A DNA stretch of 51,265 nt from a virus (lineage: Duplodnaviria > Caudoviricetes), in the IMG/VR virus record IMGVR_UViG_3300036900_000099, positions 1 to 51,265 of that record; one strand, 5' to 3'. Under the pieces are notes generated by a model. It ran no database searches and had not been told where the DNA came from. It saw only the letters and a program-made list of their open reading frames with translations. Position 1 is the first letter of the stretch. The number at the start of each line of letters is the position of its first letter. Below, one piece after another: positions 31,245-48,713 of the stretch. Position numbers and translations under genes: made by a program.

Positions 31245-31745
31245 TTAAGAATTCAAAGCCTTAACTGTGGCCTTGAAGTCTTGAAGGGCCTTGAGGCCAT
31301 CTTCCTCGGGAAGAGCAAAGATGACATCGATCGTATCCTTCTTGGTTTCGAGCAGAGCTTTTGCAGCCTCCTCGTAACCTTTACGATCTGCGACCTTAGT
31401 CGGTTCACGCCAGATCAGTCCATAAGGACCAGTGCCATAAGCAGTGATCCCATCCTCGTCCGTAGTGGGCAAGGTGAACTCATCAGACTTGATCCGATCA
31501 ACGAGTTCCTTGGCAGATTGAGGAGGATCATTCTCGGTAATGTTAAACTTCCGAGCGAGCGCCTTCTTACCATCAAACCAGGTATCCTCGATACGGTCGC
31601 GCAGGTAACGCTTGGTATCAAACATGGGAGTTTTCTCTCCTTCTTCTTTTTGTACAGGTGGGTATTTTGATTTACACACCTTAGGTTTGCAAGGTACAGC
31701 GTTTGATCTCTGTGCCTCATTGATCATTTCAAAGACGTCAAACAT
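31245..31745 (-). CDS. Hypothetical protein
   Basis: ATG 31745 overlaps the upstream ORF end; a second in-frame ATG (MFDTK) has an AAGGAG RBS. Confidence 0.75.
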   Translation of the reverse strand: MFDVFEMINEAQRSNAVPCKPKVCKSKYPPVQKEEGEKTPMFDTKRYLRDRIEDTWFDGKKALARKFNITENDPPQSAKELVDRIKSDEFTLPTTDEDGITAYGTGPYGLIWREPTKVADRKGYEEAAKALLETKKDTIDVIFALPEEDGLKALQDFKATVKALNS

Positions 31746-31881
31746 TGAACGGAGGCTCCGTCTGCTGTCCGACATCCTCTTCCGACTGAACCTCAAAAAC
31801 TTGAGCGAGGGGTTTTACCTCTCCAGTTTCAAGGTCCTTAACGGAGAGAGTTTCTCCGTTCCTTATAGTGGTAAGCTTCAT
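31738..31881 (-). CDS. Hypothetical protein, 47 aa
   Basis: GAGGAG RBS; MKLTTIRNGETLSVKDLETGEVKP... Confidence 0.65.
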   Translation of the reverse strand: MKLTTIRNGETLSVKDLETGEVKPLAQVFEVQSEEDVGQQTEPPFNV

Positions 31882-31916: not shown

Positions 31917-32156
31917 TTAACGGCTACCTCTTTTAGGTTGCCGTATTCTATTAGCATGTTTGGATACCACAGCAGTAGGCACTCTGTCAAGAGATCCTGT
32001 GCGATGATATCCTAGATGATCAACCTCTTTGTTATCGCCCTTGTGTACTAAGCCCTTTTTAGCGGCTTTACGTCTGGCTTTATTACGAGCCTCTCGACGT
32101 CTAACTTGTGCGGGCGAGTCTTCGTAACGCGTTTCACGCGGATAGTTATGAACCAT
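31917..32156 (-). CDS. Small HNH-like endonuclease
   Basis: Basic N-terminus and GDNKEVDH...VVSKHANR. Confidence 0.7.
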   Translation of the reverse strand: MVHNYPRETRYEDSPAQVRRREARNKARRKAAKKGLVHKGDNKEVDHLGYHRTGSLDRVPTAVVSKHANRIRQPKRGSR

Positions 32157-32379
32157 TGTATACGGTAAGTTTTACCTTCACCTCCTTTTTAAGTGGAGGA
32201 CAACGACCACCAAGCGGTGGTCCCAGTAGCTGATATCCAACCACTATATCCCCTTTATCTGTAATGTCAAGCCAACTTTCCAAGATATGATCTTGAGGGC
32301 GTATGAGTGCGATCGTTTGTGTGCGGAAATAGTGTGCGATGATGTCTAGGAGAATATCATCAGATATCGATTTCTCCAA
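32146..32379 (-). CDS. Hypothetical protein with C-terminal VKLTV motif
   Basis: 3' part of track ORF 32146..32475; TTG start inferred. Confidence 0.6.
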   Translation of the reverse strand: MEKSISDDILLDIIAHYFRTQTIALIRPQDHILESWLDITDKGDIVVGYQLLGPPLGGRCPPLKKEVKVKLTVYNGS

Positions 32380-32536
32380 AGTTCTTCGCTCGTACGAGGG
32401 CTTTGTGGGTTTCCGCTTCTTCGAATAGTTCGCGTTTGCGTAGGAGCCCTTTTGGTTTGACCTTCGGGCGTTCATGCTTTTTCTCCGCTACCAATCTATC
32501 AGCTTTGCTCTGCGGATGATGTATATGTTTATTCAT
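32360..32536 (-). CDS. Basic hypothetical protein, 58 aa
   Basis: MNKHIHHPQSKADRL...; overlaps both neighbours. Confidence 0.5.
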   Translation of the reverse strand: MNKHIHHPQSKADRLVAEKKHERPKVKPKGLLRKRELFEEAETHKALVRAKNFGEIDI

Positions 32537-32669
32537 ATACGTTACCGCAGGCTTTCATGATTTGCTTAAGCGCATCATAGTAGACGGCGTAGTCGATCAT
32601 CCACATCATCATTCCGCCGATGAGTAGACCCATGGTGAACATGAGAGTTGAGTAAACTGTTGTTTTCAT
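32529..32669 (-). CDS. Small membrane protein, 46 aa
   Basis: One hydrophobic segment; AAGG upstream. Confidence 0.55.
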   Translation of the reverse strand: MKTTVYSTLMFTMGLLIGGMMMWMIDYAVYYDALKQIMKACGNVYE

Positions 32670-32705
32670 AGGAATTGTGACCTTCTGTTTGAGTAAACCC
32701 ACCAG

Positions 32706-33131
32706 TTATTTCTTAACTGGACGTGTACACCTTCTTGGTAACCGTACTTTCGTAACCGTCGTTGTGCGTTTCTTGCGCTCAGCGTCATTAAGCCACTCCT
32801 CTGGAATTGTACTTATTGCGTACGGTATTCCATATTTCGTTGCCCAACGTAAATCCTGCTTTCTTCGATCATTATAAAATAATATACGTAAGTCGATGTC
32901 AGGATGTTGGGCTTTTATCGCTCTAAGCTTTCTTTTATCCTCTCGCCGTAAATATCCTTTGAGTTCGATGCGTAGTGGTGTTGTTTGCAGAACTCGGCGG
33001 ATAGTAAAGTCTGGCAAGTAAGTAGCGTGGAGGACATAAGGAAGCTTTTCCGCTTCGTATTCAAAGTTTATCTTCTTTTCTATCAGGTATTGGTTTATCG
33101 ACTTCTCGAAAGAATTGCGTAACTTCGCCAT
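32706..33131 (-). CDS. T7 endonuclease I-like resolvase
   Basis: RNSFE...FEYE...YLPDF...IELKG...HPDIDLRILF...WA...IPEEW. Confidence 0.9.
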   Translation of the reverse strand: MAKLRNSFEKSINQYLIEKKINFEYEAEKLPYVLHATYLPDFTIRRVLQTTPLRIELKGYLRREDKRKLRAIKAQHPDIDLRILFYNDRRKQDLRWATKYGIPYAISTIPEEWLNDAERKKRTTTVTKVRLPRRCTRPVKK

Positions 33132-33279
33132 CGTTAATAATAGTCATCACATAAGCTATGTCAGGTTCAGCTGCGTAGTAATCCTCCGGTTTGTTGTGCC
33201 TGACGCACGGATGAATATGTTTACACTCCTGCCACGGGTTCTGGCATTTGCATCGGCCACGTAACATTAGGCAACCCAT
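33061..33279 (-). CDS. Cys-rich small protein
   Basis: GGAGG RBS; CLMLRGRCKC..ECK resembles ORF 34731..34907; bridges the two nuclease genes. Confidence 0.55.
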   Translation of the reverse strand: MGCLMLRGRCKCQNPWQECKHIHPCVRHNKPEDYYAAEPDIAYVMTIINDGEVTQFFREVDKPIPDRKEDKL

Positions 33280-34141
33280 TGTAAACTACCCTCCCGTGTT
33301 TGTCTATTTCTTTTACGTTTTTAGGTTCACGTACAACCTTTGTTAAGTAAACTATTTTAGGTTTACTTCTTTCTGCGTAGATGAAGGTTCGGAGATGAGG
33401 ATGGCAGACGTAGCGCATCTCGTCGTAGCTTGCTCTAGTGTCGAGCTTAACGTTTCCACTTGCTTGGAAAGGTTCTGTTCCACAGCCGCAAGCCGGCGGT
33501 TGAGGGAGAGCAACAATCCTTTGATAATCCCTAAGTCTTTTTTCGATGTGATCTGGTCTATGCTTGTGTTCATGTAATGCTAAATGTCCTAGTTCTTTAC
33601 CGATGCCCAATAAGTATCCACGATCTTTTACGGTTGTAAGTGGGTCAAGTGCACTCCCGCTAAGATAAGCGTCAAGCTGATCAAGATAACCAAAGCTGTC
33701 ATCCTGCTCAATGGACCCAGACTTGAGCTTCTCCAAAGCCAAGACGCTAGAAGACTTAACATCGACCAAGCAGCCATCAATAACAGCGTCCCGATGACCC
33801 AGGACACCACAGACTTCCAGTTCATCCTGCTCTCCTGTGACTGTGTGGCCAGCGGCACGTGCTAGTGTCAAGACCAAAGCTTCAAGGATGTGTCCGTACA
33901 TCAGTTTAATGTGGACCCAAGGTGGGAGTGGAGCAGCTAATTCAGGAGTGTGTACACTGTGCCATAAGGCTTTGGGACATCTAGGTCCTAACTTCGACAA
34001 GCGAAGTCCGTTCCGGCGTACCTTTTCAGTGTCTAACCGTTTCGAGATGTCCCTAGCCAACAGTTCGGATAACTTAGGAGTCATCCAATCGGTATTTACA
34101 ATCTTATAGATGTCAGGGATTAGAGTATGAATTGTTTTCAA
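33221..34141 (-). CDS. PD-(D/E)xK (Cas4/RecB-like) exonuclease
   Basis: LRLSKLG..CPKALW, YGHILE, GHRDAVIDGCLVDVKS and DDSFGYLDQL motifs. Confidence 0.88.
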   Translation of the reverse strand: MKTIHTLIPDIYKIVNTDWMTPKLSELLARDISKRLDTEKVRRNGLRLSKLGPRCPKALWHSVHTPELAAPLPPWVHIKLMYGHILEALVLTLARAAGHTVTGEQDELEVCGVLGHRDAVIDGCLVDVKSSSVLALEKLKSGSIEQDDSFGYLDQLDAYLSGSALDPLTTVKDRGYLLGIGKELGHLALHEHKHRPDHIEKRLRDYQRIVALPQPPACGCGTEPFQASGNVKLDTRASYDEMRYVCHPHLRTFIYAERSKPKIVYLTKVVREPKNVKEIDKHGRVVYNGLPNVTWPMQMPEPVAGV

Positions 34142-34440
34142 TGATTGTTCACAATCAGTCTGAGAAGATATGCGGAAAGGTCGAGAAGTTTAACGAGTCC
34201 TAGTCCCCAGCCATAAAACGCAAATACTGAGAGAATGCCTAGGAATGGCAGTCCGAAGAAAAAGATAACCCAAACAATTCGTTTTGTCAACTCTTTTTTC
34301 TTCTTAGCTGCATCATCTTTCTTCTTCTTTTCACTTTCATTACGCTTATCAGCGCGGTTCTTTCTTCGACGAGGTGGACGTTGCGGATTGTTGTTGTATC
34401 CCCCGCCCTGGGGAACGATGATAATCGGGGGCTGGTTCAT
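34138..34440 (-). CDS. Membrane protein with basic N-terminus
   Basis: MNQPPIIIVP start, Lys/Arg tract, long hydrophobic C-terminus; ATGA overlap. Confidence 0.75.
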   Translation of the reverse strand: MNQPPIIIVPQGGGYNNNPQRPPRRRKNRADKRNESEKKKKDDAAKKKKELTKRIVWVIFFFGLPFLGILSVFAFYGWGLGLVKLLDLSAYLLRLIVNNH

Positions 34441-34540
34441 TGCTCGTATCCTTTGTGAACCCTGCTTTACAGAAATCGCATTTACATCCTATTGGATGTG
34501 TTGTCTGTCCATGTTTTAAAGTCCTCGGGGGTTGGTTCAT
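34349..34540 (-). CDS. Hypothetical protein with CxCxxC
   Basis: GGAG RBS, TAAATG junction; overlaps the downstream gene by 92 nt. Confidence 0.45.
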   Translation of the reverse strand: MNQPPRTLKHGQTTHPIGCKCDFCKAGFTKDTSNEPAPDYHRSPGRGIQQQSATSTSSKKEPR

Positions 34541-34738
34541 TTATATCTCCCAAAACCAGAGAGGGGTGGTATCTTTTGCTTCGTCCCGGAAGCCTTCAAC
34601 AATCACAATGACCATCCAGAATAACACAATCACGATTCCTATTAGCCATTGCATTGGAAGTCTCCTATGTTTGGAGGGAGTGTTGTTGTAGTCTCCCCTT
34701 CCGCCAGGGGTAACTATGATCGGCGGACCGCTATTCAT
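34541..34738 (-). CDS. Small membrane protein, 65 aa
   Basis: N-terminus similar to the 34138 ORF; one TM segment. Confidence 0.6.
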   Translation of the reverse strand: MNSGPPIIVTPGGRGDYNNTPSKHRRLPMQWLIGIVIVLFWMVIVIVEGFRDEAKDTTPLWFWEI

Positions 34739-43238: not shown

Positions 43239-43855
43239 AACGGTCTCTCCTTGGTGTAAAAACTACCGATCCACATCGAGTTAGGTGTGAGTGCATCGGC
43301 TGGTTGATATTTGGTGTCGCTGTCGATAGCTGCTTCGAAGACCTTACGATCTCCTTCCCACATCCATGCTTGGATTTGGGTGACGAGCAGCTGCCAAAAG
43401 GGTTTAGAGTAAGGAAAGGTTACTGCTTGCCGAGTTGGAATGAGCAGCGGCACGAACTTACGCTCGAACAATACCGTATTCTGGACATCCGTGTCAATCT
43501 TTATTATCTGCTGTGGAGACAAAAGATGAAGATTACCACGGATGCGCATAGCAGGGGCAGAGCAGAAAGCTCCATGCCGTTTAACTGGGTCCGACCATGC
43601 CGGAGCCTTACACACTTGATCACGTTCAGTAGCAGAGAGCGCAACTAAACCGTTAGTTTCTTTGTTGCGCCAGAGCACATAGTTCTCACGCGTAAAAGCG
43701 ATACAGCTTCTCTCTGTCTCGATGTAATAATCATCGTACATGAAGACATACCACGCTGTACGTGAGAACAAGTTAGGCACATCAGGAGTGTGCTTAGTCC
43801 TGATGAGCCCGTCTATGTTCCAGACAGACAGGGATTTCATGAAGGTTCCGTCCAC
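43235..43855 (-). CDS. Gamma-glutamylcyclotransferase (AIG2)-like protein
   Basis: VFMYD...IRGNL...ID...N..LFER...AWMW pattern. Confidence 0.55.
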   Translation of the reverse strand: MDGTFMKSLSVWNIDGLIRTKHTPDVPNLFSRTAWYVFMYDDYYIETERSCIAFTRENYVLWRNKETNGLVALSATERDQVCKAPAWSDPVKRHGAFCSAPAMRIRGNLHLLSPQQIIKIDTDVQNTVLFERKFVPLLIPTRQAVTFPYSKPFWQLLVTQIQAWMWEGDRKVFEAAIDSDTKYQPADALTPNSMWIGSFYTKERPL

Positions 43856-43960
43856 GTTGGAGGGTTAAGGAGGGGTGAGTGAGCTTCCGGGGCCAACCAG
43901 ATTGGCTCTTCTCACCCCTCTAGACGCAGGCTTGTGCTTTCGGGTCGAAGCCTGCGAATA

Positions 43961-45346
43961 TTAGGCGGCCTTCTTTCCTTTTGGGACGAGAAGTCCTGCC
44001 TTCACCTGTGATTTGGACGGTTGAGTCACAGAGATTTTCTGACCGGCGATGTTCATCCGAATCAGTTCCATAATAAGATTAGTAGCGAGCGTTTGATGTT
44101 GCTCGACGAGATAATTGATGGACTCGGGCGGTTGTTTGGACAGATCACTCAATGATACGCCGGTTTGTTCGGCGAAAGTAGGGACCTTATAGTCCTCCGC
44201 AGCCAAAGACTTGGCTGTCGTAATGTTGGGATTGATGTATCCGTGCTTTAACCAACCCTCCGTAAGCTTGGCCAATTCTTGTGCTGACATCACAGGGACA
44301 AACGGTTTGGGTTCTGTGGTGGCTTGAGCCGTGTTCTTTTTGGTGACTGGGATCCCTGCAGTAGGCGGGACAGCGGTTGCTGTAGTCGCCGCAATATTTC
44401 CACGAAAGGAAGGGTCTGCTTCCCACTTCGCCTTGTCGACCTCGACGCTCGGACGTTTCTGGAAGTCTTCCGGAACCAGGCCCTTGCCGTCCTTGGCCTT
44501 GGCATAGTTCCAGGTCTGGTACCAACTGACTAACTCCTTGGAAGTCTTAACAGACTTCGGCGGATGTACCGTAAGAAGAGTGACGGCGCCGACTGCTTTG
44601 TCGATCTCAGCAGCAACGCTCTTGCCCTTAGGAACGAGCATGCCAGTTGCTTTAGGCTTGACGTTAGGCACCGAGCCTTGTTTGTTCGGCATCTCAACGT
44701 AATCGTACGGGTTGGACATGTAGCCCCAAAGATAGCCCTTTCCCGGTGCTGCTGATCCTTCGAAGTTGAGGAACAGCGTATCGACGATGAGCAGGCAGAA
44801 ACTCGATGTCTCGGACATGACGCCAGTAGTGAAGGCATCCATGTGTTCCTTGCTGTTGTGCAAGTATTCTTGGAACTTGTCGATGTCGCCATTGACTTCC
44901 GTCGCTACTTTCTCGCAGCGCGGCTTGATCAGGTTGGTGAAGCAGTTGAATTCCGGGGACTCGGGTCCGTCGTTGTCGTGCTTCTCGAAGTCACCGTCGA
45001 AGCAGGCGACGCCGAATACTTGATGACTTGTCTCACCATCCGGTTTTTCTGGATCGACGGGCACATCCATGCCGAACACTTCGTACGGCTGCGCCGTCTT
45101 GACGACGCTATCCGAGAACCAGTACATTGCCGCTCCTTCCTTGTAGGACTCGGCGTAATCACAGATCTGCTTGATCGCTGCTTCTTCGTTATCCCAATCG
45201 AGTACACCTTGTTGCAAGATGATCTGGTTGTCGATTGAGACAGCGATACCAAATGCTTCTCGGTTATCCTTGGTCGCAGCACGGATTGCAGCTACCGGCG
45301 GAACGTAACCCTTCTTCGTGAACATAAACATAGTCGTTCGCTCCAA
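43961..45346 (-). CDS. Large hypothetical protein, N-terminus reminiscent of a degenerate class II amidotransferase
   Basis: 461 aa, GC-rich codons; F.KKG..P....AA.DN..AFGIA pattern; no N-terminal Cys; function tentative. Confidence 0.6.
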   Translation of the reverse strand: MERTTMFMFTKKGYVPPVAAIRAATKDNREAFGIAVSIDNQIILQQGVLDWDNEEAAIKQICDYAESYKEGAAMYWFSDSVVKTAQPYEVFGMDVPVDPEKPDGETSHQVFGVACFDGDFEKHDNDGPESPEFNCFTNLIKPRCEKVATEVNGDIDKFQEYLHNSKEHMDAFTTGVMSETSSFCLLIVDTLFLNFEGSAAPGKGYLWGYMSNPYDYVEMPNKQGSVPNVKPKATGMLVPKGKSVAAEIDKAVGAVTLLTVHPPKSVKTSKELVSWYQTWNYAKAKDGKGLVPEDFQKRPSVEVDKAKWEADPSFRGNIAATTATAVPPTAGIPVTKKNTAQATTEPKPFVPVMSAQELAKLTEGWLKHGYINPNITTAKSLAAEDYKVPTFAEQTGVSLSDLSKQPPESINYLVEQHQTLATNLIMELIRMNIAGQKISVTQPSKSQVKAGLLVPKGKKAA

Positions 45347-45363
45347 TGTTTGGATAAGGTAGA

Positions 45364-45915
45364 TTAGGCTACTTTGCTGCTAACGCTTCCAGCGTTGGCG
45401 TTGGTGCCACCGACGACAGTCAGCTTTACAGCCGCGCGTGCCTTTTTGGCGCGTTGTGCTTTGAGTTTCTCTTCCGCAACTTCTTTTCCACCCAAAGCTT
45501 CGACAGTCTTCTCACGAAGCTGCTCAACCTTGTACGGATGAAGCGGTCGGTAGTACTTCAACACAGGATGCAACTCAGGCAGATTGAGTGCCTGACCTAG
45601 CACTTGAAGTTTGTGCTTAGCATCCTTCTTTGATAGTCGCCCGGAGGCGGCATATCGCATTGTGATCGCCACGATGGCATCAGCCACATCGGAGTCGTAG
45701 CTCCAATGCATGAGCTTTCCCATCTGTCTGTTCCTCCAACAGACGAACTTCCACCACGCCACACGTACGAACGGTGTGATGAGATGGACGATGAGCCACA
45801 CCAGAAGACACGCGCCTGCGAAGACCGTAAGCCACGGATATTCTGCTGAGCGTTCACGCAAAAAAGTGGCTAGGGCTTCGAGCCTGTCGCCACTCCACAT
45901 TAGAATACTTTCCAA
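45364..45915 (-). CDS. Membrane-anchored protein with VKLTV motif
   Basis: AAGGA RBS and TTG; one TM segment; internal GGAGG-ATG (MGKLM). Confidence 0.75.
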   Translation of the reverse strand: MESILMWSGDRLEALATFLRERSAEYPWLTVFAGACLLVWLIVHLITPFVRVAWWKFVCWRNRQMGKLMHWSYDSDVADAIVAITMRYAASGRLSKKDAKHKLQVLGQALNLPELHPVLKYYRPLHPYKVEQLREKTVEALGGKEVAEEKLKAQRAKKARAAVKLTVVGGTNANAGSVSSKVA

Positions 45916-46108
45916 GTACCATCCTTCTGTTTAGGTTGAGGCAGAGGAACCGGGAGAGGACGGCCAAACCGCCCAGTTAAGGGAGATAAATCCCCTCCCG
46001 GTCTTCTACTAGCCTTACGCTAGCAGAACGGGTTGGGGAGAGGTCAATGCCTCGGCGGCTGTTATGCCTCTCCCCTTGCACTACCGCTGCGGAGGTTCAA
46101 CGGTAGTA

Positions 46109-46543
46109 CTAACTTAATTCAATTTCTGTCTTCCACGTGATACCAAACCGTGTGCCTTCTTCCCATCCACATTCCATAGCGTGGATCGCACGATCCTTGT
46201 CTCCATATACGATGGAGATCTTTTTCTTTTGGCAGCGCCAATCTTCAAGCTGCCACATGTATCTATGCCCGCTAAAGAGCAGACTTAGGCGGTAGTAGTG
46301 CTTGATCTCTTTGTACACAACCGCGTAGTAGTCTTGCGTACCTTGATGCCGAGCACCTCTCCACATTTCACGTACAGTGGATATGCTCGCAGCATTCTTT
46401 TCATAGCGTGATTGAGCTTCTTGCTCTCTAGCTGCACGCCATTCAGCTGTCTTTGGTTCTTGCTTCAACTCAGCAAGTGACCATCTTCCGTAACGTCTGT
46501 TTTTGACGCCTTTAGCGCGAGGCTTCTTGCGGTTTTTCCCCAT
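46109..46543 (-). CDS. Basic hypothetical protein
   Basis: GGAGG RBS directly downstream of a promoter. Confidence 0.8.
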   Translation of the reverse strand: MGKNRKKPRAKGVKNRRYGRWSLAELKQEPKTAEWRAAREQEAQSRYEKNAASISTVREMWRGARHQGTQDYYAVVYKEIKHYYRLSLLFSGHRYMWQLEDWRCQKKKISIVYGDKDRAIHAMECGWEEGTRFGITWKTEIELS

Positions 46544-46570
46544 AGTCTTTCCTCCGATTGACTATCTACC

Positions 46571-46598
46571 AGTATAAGGGATTTAGTCCTTATGTCAA
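46571..46598 (-). promoter_or_regulatory. Sigma70-like early promoter
   Basis: TTGACA-16 nt-TATACT. Confidence 0.75.
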
Positions 46599-46604
46599 CT
46601 GGGT

Positions 46605-46898
46605 TTAGCCCGCAAACCAAGTCCTTCCAGCCTTACCATCTGAATAATGAGTGAAGTCCATCTTTTCAAAGATGGTACAATCCTTCTGGTATCCACCTGC
46701 TTCTGGGTCCCACCACGCAACGAGATATTCATCTTCATTATGAAGAGCACTGACGATTTCTCCACCTCCGTACTTGCCTTCTAGATCACGTCCGTGGCTA
46801 AACACGGCATCACCCACAAGAGGGCGGGATAGTTCGCTCACCTCGACTTTATCTGCTTCATTCAGACTGTCGAGGATACTGAGTACGATGTCGCTCAT
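46605..46898 (-). CDS. Hypothetical protein (start revised to MSDIV)
   Basis: TAATG overlap with the upstream ORF. Confidence 0.7.
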   Translation of the reverse strand: MSDIVLSILDSLNEADKVEVSELSRPLVGDAVFSHGRDLEGKYGGGEIVSALHNEDEYLVAWWDPEAGGYQKDCTIFEKMDFTHYSDGKAGRTWFAG

Positions 46899-47161
46899 TA
46901 CTCTTTCCTTTCGATCACATAATCGCGCCATAGACGATGGACTGTGCCAGAAGGCGACAATCCGGTGTATTCGTAGACAGGTACGTCGAACATGGAAGCG
47001 TATACGAAACCCTTCCACATCAGTCTTCGGTATTCCAGATTCGGGTCACCGACACAACGTCCAGGCATTTGCTGCACGACGTCGGTGATAGGAACGATCA
47101 CGAACTTTTCGAGCGTCGTTTCCAAGCCGTGCGCTTTGATGAATGGTTTGATGATGCTCAT
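46898..47161 (-). CDS. Hypothetical protein
   Basis: AAGGAG RBS, ATGA overlap. Confidence 0.7.
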   Translation of the reverse strand: MSIIKPFIKAHGLETTLEKFVIVPITDVVQQMPGRCVGDPNLEYRRLMWKGFVYASMFDVPVYEYTGLSPSGTVHRLWRDYVIERKE

Positions 47162-47346
47162 CTGTATTCTCCTTGGTTGGTGATGTCAACCTTGTCGGGG
47201 TGATCCCGTAACAGGGTCGTGGGAGAGTTCGGCTTGTTTGATGTCGGTCTTGACGACGGCTTCTCCTCTCGGTTTAGCCGATGTGCAATGTACATCAATA
47301 ATACGCTGATGCCTATTGCGATAATCAATACGTGGAGTTGCATCAC
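47158..47346 (-). CDS. Small membrane protein
   Basis: N-terminal TM segment; ATGA overlap downstream. Confidence 0.55.
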   Translation of the reverse strand: MMQLHVLIIAIGISVLLMYIAHRLNREEKPSSRPTSNKPNSPTTLLRDHPDKVDITNQGEYR

Positions 47347-47446
47347 GTTTCTCCCATTTGTCGAGTTGATGATTAGCGACGATGTAGAACAACAAACCTA
47401 CGTTTGCTGCGAGCGACATGATTAGTGTAGGGTACATCCAATACAT
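47186..47446 (-). CDS. Small membrane protein
   Basis: AAGGAGGT RBS; N-terminal TM segment. Confidence 0.6.
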   Translation of the reverse strand: MYWMYPTLIMSLAANVGLLFYIVANHQLDKWEKRDATPRIDYRNRHQRIIDVHCTSAKPRGEAVVKTDIKQAELSHDPVTGSPRQG

Positions 47447-47734
47447 GCTCCACCTCCTTTAGAATACCCCGCCACGCTCATTAGAAGCCCGCTGGTGCGA
47501 GATATTACAAAAAAGGTAGTTAGATAGCCTAAGTAAAATAAGTAGGGGAACGGTAGGAGATGGGGGATGAGCACCGTTCCCCTATGCTCACATCGAGTGG
47601 GTGTGGCTTAACTCGATGGAGCTATCTTGTGTACGGTAAAGTATCCGGTCTCACGCTCTTCATTCATGAGTCGACACTTGTTAATCGCAGCGATTTCATC
47701 ATCCTCAAAAGAATGAATGACCGTTCCTGCCGGA

Positions 47735-48094
47735 TTACGGATTTGATAGTACGTCCCCGTCAGTGACGAGTCCGGAGGATTTGTCGTTGATGACGGTGAG
47801 CTTAACACGCTCTCGTCGCTTGCGCTCCCGCTCTTGACGGGATGCACACTCGGCTTCTTTCGCGAGCTGTTGCGCGGCCTCCCTTTCCTTTCGATACGCT
47901 TCGATCTCTTCGGCACGTTTATCCTCCTCAAGGATGTAGTACCAAAAGTCAGTCTCCTTGTCGTAGGCATAGCCCTCACCACGGAGACGATAAGTGAGAG
48001 TATTCCAAGCCTTGGTTACAGAACCAGGCACAGCTTCGACATGATTGTCGATAGCCTTACGCCAGCGCTTACGTGCGTTACTCTTATTCGCCAT
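47735..48094 (-). CDS. Hypothetical protein with VKLTV motif (start revised to MANKS)
   Basis: AAGGAG RBS; charged helix. Confidence 0.7.
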   Translation of the reverse strand: MANKSNARKRWRKAIDNHVEAVPGSVTKAWNTLTYRLRGEGYAYDKETDFWYYILEEDKRAEEIEAYRKEREAAQQLAKEAECASRQERERKRRERVKLTVINDKSSGLVTDGDVLSNP

Positions 48095-48296
48095 TGTCTT
48101 TGTCTCCTTTCTTGATGATCTTGCTAAAGTGTTCGAGACGAGCAGCTTTGGCTGCTGCTGCACATTGATGCGCAACAACAGCCCTAACTGTCGCATCCTT
48201 GATATGATCTTTCAGTATCCGCTGGATAGCTGAAATCTCAAGTAGCCGCTCACCGCTGAGCCTACGCAAAAATGCCATAGACAGTGAGCTTAACAA
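48084..48296 (-). CDS. Hypothetical protein
   Basis: Fills the gap; start uncertain. Confidence 0.45.
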   Translation of the reverse strand: MLSSLSMAFLRRLSGERLLEISAIQRILKDHIKDATVRAVVAHQCAAAAKAARLEHFSKIIKKGDKDNGE

Positions 48297-48501
48297 CAGG
48301 AGGATTGAGATTAACCAGAGGGTTGGCTAACCGTGGAACCCATGTCAAACCTTGGTCAGGCATAGGCACAGCCTTGTTTTTAAGTGGCCGATATGTGTAT
48401 GGCTTAGCGTTGTCGATGAGCATTAGTTTACCCATCTTAACGCCAGCCATATGTTGCTCATACCTACGCATGAGCTTAAGTCTGTTGAGTTCGTCGAGCA
48501 T
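48262..48501 (-). CDS. Hypothetical protein with C-terminal VKLTV motif
   Basis: TGATG overlap at 48501. Confidence 0.65.
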   Translation of the reverse strand: MLDELNRLKLMRRYEQHMAGVKMGKLMLIDNAKPYTYRPLKNKAVPMPDQGLTWVPRLANPLVNLNPPVVKLTVYGIFA

Positions 48502-48713
48502 CAGTTCATAAGCTCCACGGTTGCATAAGGATTGAACTTGTCTTCGTGACCGTGGGCACATCTTGCCCAACATTCATCGTCTGGCCGATCAGGCGGAGTT
48601 TCGATGGCTGTGTACTCCTCCCACGGACTTACTGGCGTTGCACGCCACCTGAATTTCTTTCCGATTGGAACTTCCCACATATCCATTACTTGATCCTCCG
48701 CACGAATGCCCAT
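48501..48713 (-). CDS. Hypothetical protein
   Basis: 70-aa ORF; GGAGGA before an internal ATG. Confidence 0.6.
   Translation of the reverse strand: MGIRAEDQVMDMWEVPIGKKFRWRATPVSPWEEYTAIETPPDRPDDECWARCAHGHEDKFNPYATVELMN

Follow-up and report, generated by a model that had tools for sequence, protein, structure and literature searches.

A recurrent VKLTV-type peptide at the termini of otherwise unrelated replication-block proteins of an uncultured phage, a putative docking tag

The window, meaning the whole stretch of DNA analysed here, comprises the 51,265 nucleotides of IMG/VR record IMGVR_UViG_3300036900_000099 and derives from an uncultured, 51-kb phage, an SIO1-like podovirus without an RNA polymerase of its own. 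A minus-strand block of this DNA encodes a primase-helicase, DNA polymerase A, a gp2.5-like SSB, a Cas4-type exonuclease and endonuclease I, together with the proteins described below, termed carriers, each of which bears the same type of short peptide (the tag). The SSB has a similar strand in its interior, CMITVYNY. Six-frame translation of the window gave exactly six matches to VKLTV, all on the minus strand and each in frame with a long ORF, followed in coordinate order (32158 to 48294) by Y, Y, W, V, I and Y. A preliminary description had placed six in-frame copies in six early proteins; all six copies and carriers were recovered at the same positions, and the count proved too low, a degenerate seventh copy (MKLTTI, in ORF 31738-31881) bringing the carriers to at least seven. 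The designation early is taken from the position of the carriers amid the replication genes, and is used here in that sense. The tags and carriers are as follows.

32158-32175, minus strand: tag 1, VKLTVY, followed by the last 3 aa of ORF 32146-32475
32146-32475, minus strand: carrier 1, 109 aa, no known family
37304-37321, minus strand: tag 2, VKLTVY, with one K between it and the stop codon (1 aa before the C-terminus), ORF 37298-37504
37298-37504, minus strand: carrier 2, 68 aa, no known family
41199-41216, minus strand: tag 3, VKLTVW, N-terminal, straight after the start Met (MVKLTVW) of ORF 40755-41219
40755-41219, minus strand: carrier 3, 154 aa, predicted small beta domain and helix, then a disordered tail
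45412-45429, minus strand: tag 4, VKLTVV, followed by the last 15 aa of ORF 45364-45915
45364-45915, minus strand: carrier 4, 183 aa, N-terminal helix hydrophobic, tag preceded by a long charged helix
47789-47806, minus strand: tag 5, VKLTVI, followed by the last 17 aa of ORF 47735-48196
47735-48094, minus strand: carrier 5, 119 aa if read from the Met at 48094
48277-48294, minus strand: tag 6, VKLTVY, preceded by NLNPPV and followed by the last 4 aa of ORF 48262-48573
48262-48573, minus strand: carrier 6, putative gene, 103 aa, found in this genome only
31864-31881, minus strand: tag 7, MKLTTI, degenerate, at the N-terminus of ORF 31738-31881
31738-31881, minus strand: carrier 7, 47 aa, acidic

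The carriers match no family in PHROG or Pfam, carrier 1 included, and none has a known function. A search of all 1.84 billion representatives returned 6 matches to carrier 1 at E <= 0.001. A further conserved stretch, KP.YY.R.TQ.R, lies in the disordered tail predicted for carrier 3. Foldseek found no PDB match to this protein at E <= 0.001, its best VIA-align Z of 5.1 is within the noise that the tool describes, and its BFVD matches (best E 8.6e-5) were uncharacterised phage proteins only. The hydrophobic N-terminal helix of carrier 4 suggests that this protein is probably anchored in the membrane. The true start of ORF 47735-48196 is probably the Met at 48094 (MANKSNARKRW), the one used by its homologues; ESM Atlas gave no usable match to carrier 5. 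Carrier 6 is the least supported carrier gene, because it has no homologue in the related genomes G001-G003 and its exact ORF is absent from the protein collection. The same collection contains the exact sequence of carrier 7, called as a gene in this genome.

In a set of 85 greedily picked ORFs (15,798 aa), VKLTV was found in 5 proteins, the sixth carrier, 40755-41219, being left out of the set by the overlap rule, while KLTVY, which overlaps VKLTV, was found in 3 and every other 5-mer in 2 or fewer. Among 1000 within-protein shuffles, the most widely shared 5-mer was found in 2 proteins in 670 and in 3 proteins in 330, and 0 of 1000 reached 4. The tags were also closer to protein ends than expected (Fisher combined p = 0.002 for the seven carriers), as had been proposed; three of the seven end within 4 residues of the C-terminus, two lie 15-17 residues from it and two are N-terminal. 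The minus-strand block holds 29.5% of residues, yet all seven carriers (p ~2e-4). All-against-all BLASTP of the seven sequences gave a single alignment beyond the tag, between 45364-45915 and 47735-48094 (32% over 40 aa, E 0.008 in the seven-sequence database), comprising a charged helix and the tag, and the claim that the carriers are otherwise unrelated holds at the BLASTP level. At six residues the tag is within the 3-10 residue size of short linear motifs, and it recurs across seven carriers that share no other similarity.

The VKLTV codons of the six copies (GTA/GTT, AAA/AAG, CTT/CTA/CTG/CTC, ACC/ACT) are as first reported. The corresponding DNA pattern, GTNAARCTNACNGTN, has 6 reverse-strand and 0 forward matches in the window, and the same pattern read backwards, used as a control, has 0 and 0; no out-of-frame or intergenic copy was present on either strand of the window. 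A relative, G001 (DNA polymerase 77% identical), uses TTG, ATT or ATA where the window has CTN and differs at further wobble bases, for example GTA AAG CTG ACT GTC GTC in one genome and GTG AAG TTG ACA ATT GTC in the other. Since codons differ between genomes, the comparison indicates that selection acts on the peptide, not on the DNA, as the preliminary description had argued; conservation as DNA regardless of frame, which it had named as grounds for abandoning the idea, was not seen. A DNA-level repeat or regulatory site was rejected, and the more general view that the peptide is a translated DNA or RNA element (promoter, operator or recombination site) is close to refuted. This view can point to the placement of all copies on one strand and, within this genome, to the first Val codon always being GTW and the Thr codon always ACY (each about a 2% chance given codon usage, noted post hoc), but variation is confined exactly to wobble positions, six of six copies are in the coding frame, the next start codon lies ~19 to ~200 nt away, and one copy is just inside a gene start.

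The motif is also present in homologues of the carriers, the evidence comprising two genome lineages and metagenomic protein fragments. In five carriers the homologues, from G001 and from metagenomes, keep [VI]-[KR]-[LI]-[TS]-[VI]-hydrophobic at the same terminus (VKITII, YKLTIF, KITVYN, VKLTIV and IKLTTI in G001), with linkers that vary in sequence and length around a tag that stays terminal. All six VKLTV copies are exactly identical in the lineage of the window, whereas the G001 tags differ among themselves. Four protein families, those of carriers 1, 3, 4 and 5, were aligned (39 rows in all), and the tag was present in 38 of 39 rows, with K (31) or R (7) at position 2 and T or S at position 4 in 35 of the 38. 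Residue-class identity within the tag was 0.75-1.00 in all four alignments and 0.08-0.58 in seven of the eight 12-aa flanks, the exception (0.75) being the folded core that follows the N-terminal tag in the 40755-41219 family. Relatives at ~50% polymerase identity lack the tag, and most carrier genes are absent there too.

The individual tags vary within these limits. Tag 1, which follows a Pro-rich, basic linker (GPPLGGRCPPLKKEVK), appears in homologues as VKLTVY, VKITVI, VRVSRI, VRITVY and VKISIY, and in G001 as VKITII. Members of the 90% cluster of carrier 2 end in VKLTVWK, VRLTVYK or VNMTVWK with linker lengths differing by 3 to 10 aa, the VNMTVW form (N at position 2) being found in one member, and the G001 counterpart ends in YKLTIF and a stop codon. 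Tag 3 is kept in 8 of 9 family rows (VKLTVW in five, then PKITVY, MKITVI and HRMTVI), the ninth having a different N-terminal domain and no tag. Tag 4 is kept in 10 of 10 rows (VKLTVV in six, then VRLTVV, VKLTIV, VKLTII and IRLTVV), with L165 and T166 invariant and the residues just before diverging. Tag 5, preceded by a long Glu/Arg/Lys-rich helix, reads VKLTVI in five of 14 rows, VKCTII in two, and VKLTII, VRISSI, IKLTSY, IKLTTI, IKTIVI, RKVVVI and RRVVVI in one each, IKLTTI being the G001 form and the last two belonging to distant homologues. The G001 counterpart of carrier 7 is a syntenic 48-aa ORF that starts MKLTTL, with AAGGAG 9 nt upstream of its ATG; between the two genomes the N-terminal MKLTT[IL] alone survives and the rest of the sequence has diverged. 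By alignment the tag is not strictly invariant and, given the VNMTVW, RKVVVI and RRVVVI forms, the requirement may be little more than a basic residue and a hydrophobic strand after it.

AlphaFold2 modelling of two carriers placed the tag outside the modelled fold in both, one N-terminal and one C-terminal. In carrier 3, pLDDT is <50 over residues 1-7, with a folded core that begins at residue 14; in the all-helical model of carrier 4, pLDDT is <50 at residues 163-165 and 167-183, and as the input alignments were shallow (9 and 10 rows) these low values are not proof of disorder. Pro-rich or charged linkers of variable length precede the tag, which on these shallow-alignment models would lie in a flexible region of the kind that short linear motifs occupy. 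From alignments and models together, the peptide appears to behave as the shared tag that had been suggested, carried on flexible ends by proteins of no evident kinship.

Our preferred reading, to which we give roughly even odds, is that the six VKLTV copies and the degenerate seventh constitute a clade-specific short linear motif, a common docking tag for one putative partner. The tag would be a six-residue amphipathic beta-strand with the consensus [VI]-[KR]-[LI]-[TS]-[VI]-[Y/W/F/I/V], often followed by N or G, carried on a flexible N- or C-terminal tail by at least seven otherwise unrelated proteins of the replication or early block. We infer that the tag has a binding partner, that this partner is the same for every copy and that the tag binds it by adding a strand: all tails would contribute their strands at a single site of one protein, which would thereby serve as a hub for different payloads, among them the 47-aa acidic peptide, several small domains and the protein that is probably anchored in the membrane. 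We consider a host protein a likelier hub than one of the phage, since a recognisable peptide-binding fold was seen in none of the phage ORFs scanned and the carriers are among early genes. A bolder version is offered tentatively, as somewhat doubtful: a phage-encoded motif-mimicry network in bacteria, in which a beta-strand docking tag of a new class, distinct from the clamp-binding, SSB-tail and SspB motifs, would plug at least seven early payloads into a single host hub. If true, the reader of the tag would reveal an unrecognised site on a host hub and the take-over strategy of a phage group without a cultured member.

A common partner may be unnecessary if the peptide is a structural strand, convergent or inherited, with which each carrier completes its own fold or oligomerises. 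Alternating V-x-L-x-V is generic for beta-strands, VVVI is tolerated in distant homologues of the tag 5 family and the internal strand of the SSB is similar, but exact identity over six unrelated folds, one of them all-helical, variable linkers before the tag and a tag left unpacked in both AlphaFold2 models make this reading improbable. We regard as equally improbable a hubless arrangement in which the strands pair with each other, N- with C-terminal or like with like, and zip the carriers into a heteromeric early complex. Identical amphipathic strands could pair, two tags are N-terminal and five C-terminal, and the six copies of the window lineage are exactly identical; against this, a lone six-residue strand pairs weakly and unspecifically, simple pairing does not need the invariant K and T, and the tags of the G001 lineage differ from one another.

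The conserved K and T could instead be substrates: one phage or host enzyme would modify the invariant Lys or Thr (by phosphorylation, acylation or ADP-ribosylation) or cut the tail there. That K/R (38 of 38 family tags) and T/S (35 of 38) are the best-kept residues and that the site is in an exposed tail agree with this idea, which we nevertheless consider very unlikely, the hydrophobic positions being as conserved as K and T and no kinase, transferase or protease being recognised among the ORFs scanned. Slightly stronger than any of these, though still unlikely, is a common signal for degradation or tethering. Its reader would be a host AAA+ protease or the adaptor-binding domain of one (ClpX N domain, Lon, FtsH), the outcome being timed removal of early proteins or delivery of bound targets for destruction. 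LRVVK, the tail of SspB, is found at the extreme C-terminal end of that adaptor, and VKLTV matches it in the first three residue classes. The tag is also terminal, exposed, hydrophobic and often placed after basic residues, and SspB tethers through a short segment that ends its disordered C-terminal region (PMC9963277). Nevertheless, tags at N-termini and 1-17 residues from C-termini suit a docking site better than engagement by a pore, and there is no sequence match to LRVVK beyond residue class.

The docking-tag reading has several precedents. In the short-linear-motif mimicry of eukaryotic viruses and in the cargo-loading peptides of encapsulins, the same short peptide on disordered ends addresses unrelated proteins to one site; these systems belong to other kingdoms and use other motifs, and no observation made here suggests capsid loading, the carriers being encoded in the replication block rather than with the virion genes. 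In phage T4, gp43, gp33 and gp55 dock through their C-terminal tails on the gp45 clamp, and as in our phage several different proteins have a common terminal hydrophobic tail, there directed to one ring-shaped hub, but no clamp gene was recognised among the ORFs scanned here and the motif sequence differs. A dnaN gene lies at L100:1492-2589 in a metagenome-assembled genome that contains a G001-like contig and is a putative host only. The ClpX N domain, the partner of SspB, is zinc-binding. It is bound by the short end segment of the SspB tail (PMC9963277), a strand-forming segment in a disordered tail that resembles our tag, for which a tethering role would have to be supposed; there, however, one adaptor has one tail at its very C-terminus, whereas here seven proteins use both termini and the likeness to LRVVK is of residue class at three positions only. 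No finding of this analysis links the tag to ClpX, the hub suggested initially, and we consider that identification very improbable. The carriers had also been cast as adaptors, a role that can only be supposed for proteins of no known function.

A close parallel is the clamp-binding motif QL[SD]LF, which is used by MuC and Mor of phage Mu and works at either terminus in MuC, T4 using the same clamp-docking strategy (PMC12867686). The tag differs in having K or R in place of the defining first Gln, which is found in 0 of the 38 family tags (K 31, R 7; one further cluster member has N), and in an extra conserved hydrophobic residue that precedes the K or R. By analogy, the host sliding clamp is the leading named candidate for the hub, if an unlikely one. 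Both motifs are of 5-6 residues at an extreme terminus and common to unrelated proteins, which the Mu motif docks on one hub. They further share a hydrophobic spacing of i, i+2, i+3 with a small polar residue between (L-x-V-Y in the tag, L-x-L-F in the clamp motif), so that clamp-motif positions 2, 4 and 5 are hydrophobic and position 3 is small and polar in KLTVY, KLTVW, KLTVV and KLTVI of the window, and the same spacing is kept by relatives in KITVY, KLTIF and KLTIV.

Six-frame translation of the window placed all six copies of VKLTV at the coordinates named in the preliminary description. Every copy lies on the minus strand in frame with a long ORF, and the next residues are, in order, Y, Y, W, V, I and Y; five end 1-17 residues before the C-terminus of the protein and one follows the start Met. 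A looser scan recovered a seventh, degenerate copy, MKLTTI, with which an acidic ORF of 47 aa begins. The tagged proteins (carriers), all encoded in the presumed early block, are:

32146-32475, minus strand: carrier 1, tag at 32158-32175
37298-37504, minus strand: carrier 2, tag at 37304-37321
40755-41219, minus strand: carrier 3, N-terminal tag at 41199-41216
45364-45915, minus strand: carrier 4, tag at 45412-45429
47735-48094, minus strand: carrier 5, tag at 47789-47806
48262-48573, minus strand: carrier 6, tag at 48277-48294
31738-31881, minus strand: carrier 7, degenerate N-terminal tag

A degenerate DNA pattern for the tag matched the window six times in the reverse and 0 times in the forward orientation, and the reversed-pattern control gave 0 matches. 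Among 85 ORFs selected greedily, a selection from which the overlap rule had removed carrier 3, VKLTV was present in five proteins, and none of 1000 within-protein shuffles produced a 5-mer shared by more than three proteins. The carriers have nothing else in common at the BLASTP level, as expected of the unrelated proteins they had been taken for. VKLTV does recur, and well beyond what chance would give.

The preliminary description also held that the peptide, rather than the DNA, is constrained. Codon differences among the six copies in the window fall at wobble positions. All six use a CTN codon for Leu, which is not significant because CTN makes up 70% of Leu codons in the minus-strand block, and the restriction of the first Val to GTW and of Thr to ACY (~2% each, post hoc) is mildly unusual. 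The decisive comparison is with the closest relative (G001; polymerase 77% identical), in which homologues of five carriers each keep a version of the hexapeptide at the corresponding terminus (VKITII, YKLTIF, KITVYN, VKLTIV and IKLTTI); their codons differ from those of the window, with TTG, ATT and ATA among those used for Leu/Ile. Retention of the hexapeptide with different codons strongly supports a constraint acting at the peptide level. A promoter or ribosome-site role for the tag DNA does not fit, since the distance from tag to next start codon varies from ~19 to ~200 nt. Carrier 7 also has a syntenic counterpart in G001, a 48-aa ORF that starts MKLTTL, has a good ribosome-binding site and is otherwise diverged; IKLTTI is the form taken by tag 5 in G001. 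Three further loose matches, MKTTVY (ORF 32529-32702), NKVTLV (N-terminus of ORF 250-1818) and VKLAKF (ORF 37630-37872), are not kept in G001 and were not counted as tags.

Searches of large protein collections yielded small homologue families for four carriers, with the following tag forms:

Carrier 1 (alignment A5, 6 rows): VKLTVY in two; VKITVI, VRVSRI, VRITVY, VKISIY
Carrier 3 (A2, 9 rows): VKLTVW in five; PKITVY, MKITVI, HRMTVI; one tagless row with a different N-terminal domain
Carrier 4 (A3, 10 rows): VKLTVV in six; VRLTVV, VKLTIV, VKLTII, IRLTVV
Carrier 5 (A4, 14 rows): VKLTVI in five; VKCTII in two; VKLTII, VRISSI, IKLTSY, IKLTTI, IKTIVI, RKVVVI, RRVVVI

The tag is thus present in 38 of 39 family rows, with K (31) or R (7) at position 2 and T or S at position 4 in 35 of the 38. 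Residue-class identity is 0.75-1.00 in the tag columns versus 0.08-0.58 in seven of the eight flanks (12 residues on each side); the exception, on the C-terminal side of the N-terminal tag in A2, is folded core and reaches 0.75. In the carrier 4 family the L and T of the tag are invariant and the preceding 20 residues have diverged. The 90% cluster of carrier 2 (n=4) ends in VKLTVYK, VKLTVWK, VRLTVYK and VNMTVWK, after linkers that vary in length by 3-10 residues. The carrier 5 alignment also indicated that the real start of this protein is the Met at 48094.

Some C-terminal tags lie downstream of Pro-rich linkers (GPPLGGRCPPLKKEVK, NLNPPV, EYPGQEITT) and others follow long charged helices. 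AlphaFold2 modelled carrier 3 as a confident small beta domain plus a helix (pLDDT ~90, residues 11-90), with residues 1-7, which contain the tag, below 50, and carrier 4 as all-helical, with pLDDT below 50 for the tag and all residues C-terminal to it (residues 163-165 and 167-183); the alignments being shallow, these results show only that the models leave the tag unpacked. PHROGs and Pfam gave no family for six carriers, scanned with ~30 other ORFs, the sole row being a sub-threshold PDDEXK_2 match on carrier 5 (18 bits; cut-off, 27 bits). Fold searches with the carrier 3 model gave no functional lead: Foldseek found no PDB match at E 0.001 or better, BFVD returned uncharacterised phage proteins only, and the best VIA-align Z was 5.1. 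ESM Atlas held no usable match for carrier 5. The C-terminal tail of carrier 3 (40755-40830, minus) contains a second conserved stretch, K-P-x-Y-Y-x-R-x-T-Q-x-R, which is disordered in the AlphaFold2 model, is kept in seven of the nine family rows (the other two end sooner) and may be another short motif.

The virus record that makes up the window is complete, at 51,265 bp, carries direct terminal repeats and is organised as follows:

~5.7 to 31 kb, plus strand: terminase, portal, tail and internal virion proteins
~31.2 to 49.6 kb, minus strand: T7-type primase-helicase, DNA polymerase A, Cas4-type exonuclease, endonuclease I
Within ~31.2 to 49.6 kb, minus strand: gp2.5-like SSB (weak match)

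The window ORFs scanned include no recognisable phage RNA polymerase, and no tRNA or Rfam family match was found anywhere in the window. The SSB-like protein ends in DPIW (37874-37885, minus) in both this genome and G001, and its C-terminus is also aromatic in two relatives at ~50% polymerase identity, G002 (NPEF) and G003 (EYNF), an ending reminiscent of the Phe with which T7 gp2.5 terminates.

Four other features of the window were recorded. The genome is tightly packed except at 34900-37300, where ~2 kb hold no ORF >117 aa on either strand; this region shares 66% DNA identity over ~1.7 kb with a G001-like contig (window ~34913-36648), has no Rfam match even at E up to 1, and could hold numerous very small genes or encode an RNA not yet described. 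At 47608-47760 (minus), a protein-like frame that finishes with ...YYQIRNPAGTVIHSFEDDEIAAINKCRLMNEERETGYFTVHKIAPSS runs over the end of carrier 5, out of frame with it. Near its plausible start there is no ATG, GTG or TTG, and the frame is missing from G001; it might use an unusual start codon, be produced by a frameshift or have arisen by chance. The 461-aa ORF at 43961-45346 (minus) contains LVPKGK twice, internally (GMLVPKGKS) and C-terminally (GLLVPKGKKAA), a pattern not found in G001-G003. Adjoining small membrane-protein ORFs at 34138-34738 (minus) have similar N-termini (MNQPPIIIVPQGGGYNNNP, MNSGPPIIVTPGGRGDYNNTP) and look like tandem paralogues.

The tag system is confined to a small clade comprising this genome, G001, two near-copies of G001 (L008 and L099) and metagenomic fragments. 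Most carrier genes are missing from genomes at ~50% polymerase identity (G002, G003 and others); G003 has a carrier 3 homologue whose alignment starts only at residue 12, and G002 a weak 25-residue match to carrier 2. The genomes at this distance gave no tag-like matches; a position matrix derived from the tags of this genome and G001, and circular for these two, found 0 matches of at least 11 bits in G002 and G003. An IMG/VR search (7 loci) and a metagenome scan (76 loci) added no close relatives beyond one 2.3-kb fragment, and several tags together were seen in none of the 76 metagenome loci and in no distant relative; reduced-alphabet k-mer counts were too insensitive, missing even the known tag. 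Among cultured phages, the closest are CRP-4-, CRP-5- and SIO1-like podoviruses of Roseobacter and Lentibacter (polymerase identity <=39%), and megablast of the window against phage records gave no match. L099, a 50,792-nt contig, was binned in a 2.1-Mb MAG labelled Rhabdochlamydiaceae. This MAG contained no spacer-like match, and when 401 genomes of its phylum were drawn and 400 of them scored, the best short match lay in ordinary coding sequence, not a repeat array; nor was the tag pattern enriched in the MAG (1 match versus 3 for controls). With no spacer or other link found, the Rhabdochlamydiaceae assignment is one of binning alone. To our knowledge, only small single-stranded DNA phages are known from chlamydiae, and a tailed phage would be notable if the host link is true.

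The tag has the features of a short linear motif, being short, located on loose ends of unrelated proteins and conserved above its surroundings. The V-K-L-T-V-hydrophobic alternation is that of an amphipathic strand with both faces conserved, which suggests that the tag strand would be clasped by, or added to, the sheet of a partner protein, and the occurrence of one tag in seven proteins would most simply mean one common reader. A shared docking tag, predicted and as yet unproven, is the best explanation. A shared degron, tag-to-tag zipping, a strand with a private structural role in each protein and a modification site were each given lower odds. The tag resembles the strand with which MetJ or CopG reads DNA, but a ribbon-helix-helix reading was dropped because most tags are C-terminal and two helices do not come after them. 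As to the reader of a docking tag, no peptide-binding domain was recognisable among the phage ORFs scanned, and a search of the polymerase, primase-helicase and SSB for hub-binding insertions found clade-specific inserts of only 10-17 aa, nothing clear. A complex prediction with carrier 3 residues 1-110, the SSB-like protein and carrier 2, scored for carrier 1 as partner, returned a score of 0.01 and a mark of 0.32, which is the tool's 'no answer', had no controls and counts neither way.

Many cellular and viral proteins reach hubs such as the clamp, SSB or a protease adaptor through docking peptides held in common. We know of few such cases in phages, each found one protein at a time, and this motif is not known to us from any phage system described so far. 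Open-access text likewise yielded no phage system with the motif, no paper combining short linear motif, bacteriophage, early proteins and C-terminal, and, judged by title, nothing on phages among nine papers with the string VKLTV. Here the genome itself marks seven orphan proteins as one set, giving a handle on genes otherwise without any annotation. A synthetic tag peptide could serve as bait for the hub, the identity of which would suggest roles for the early proteins and possibly the host of the phage. The case also illustrates how a scan of phage proteomes for over-represented terminal peptides can reveal functional links missed by homology searches.

Among known hubs, ClpX, put forward in the preliminary description, would be an analogy with SspB-ClpX (PMC9963277) and is unsupported. 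The defining Gln of the clamp-binding motif is never present in the tag, which places the tag outside that motif family. The sliding clamp is nevertheless the nearest formal parallel, both in the spacing of hydrophobic residues and in the use of either terminus: according to PMC12867686, which also cites a list of clamp motifs in 100 Mor/C members, the clamp-binding motif of phage Mu MuC works at either terminus.
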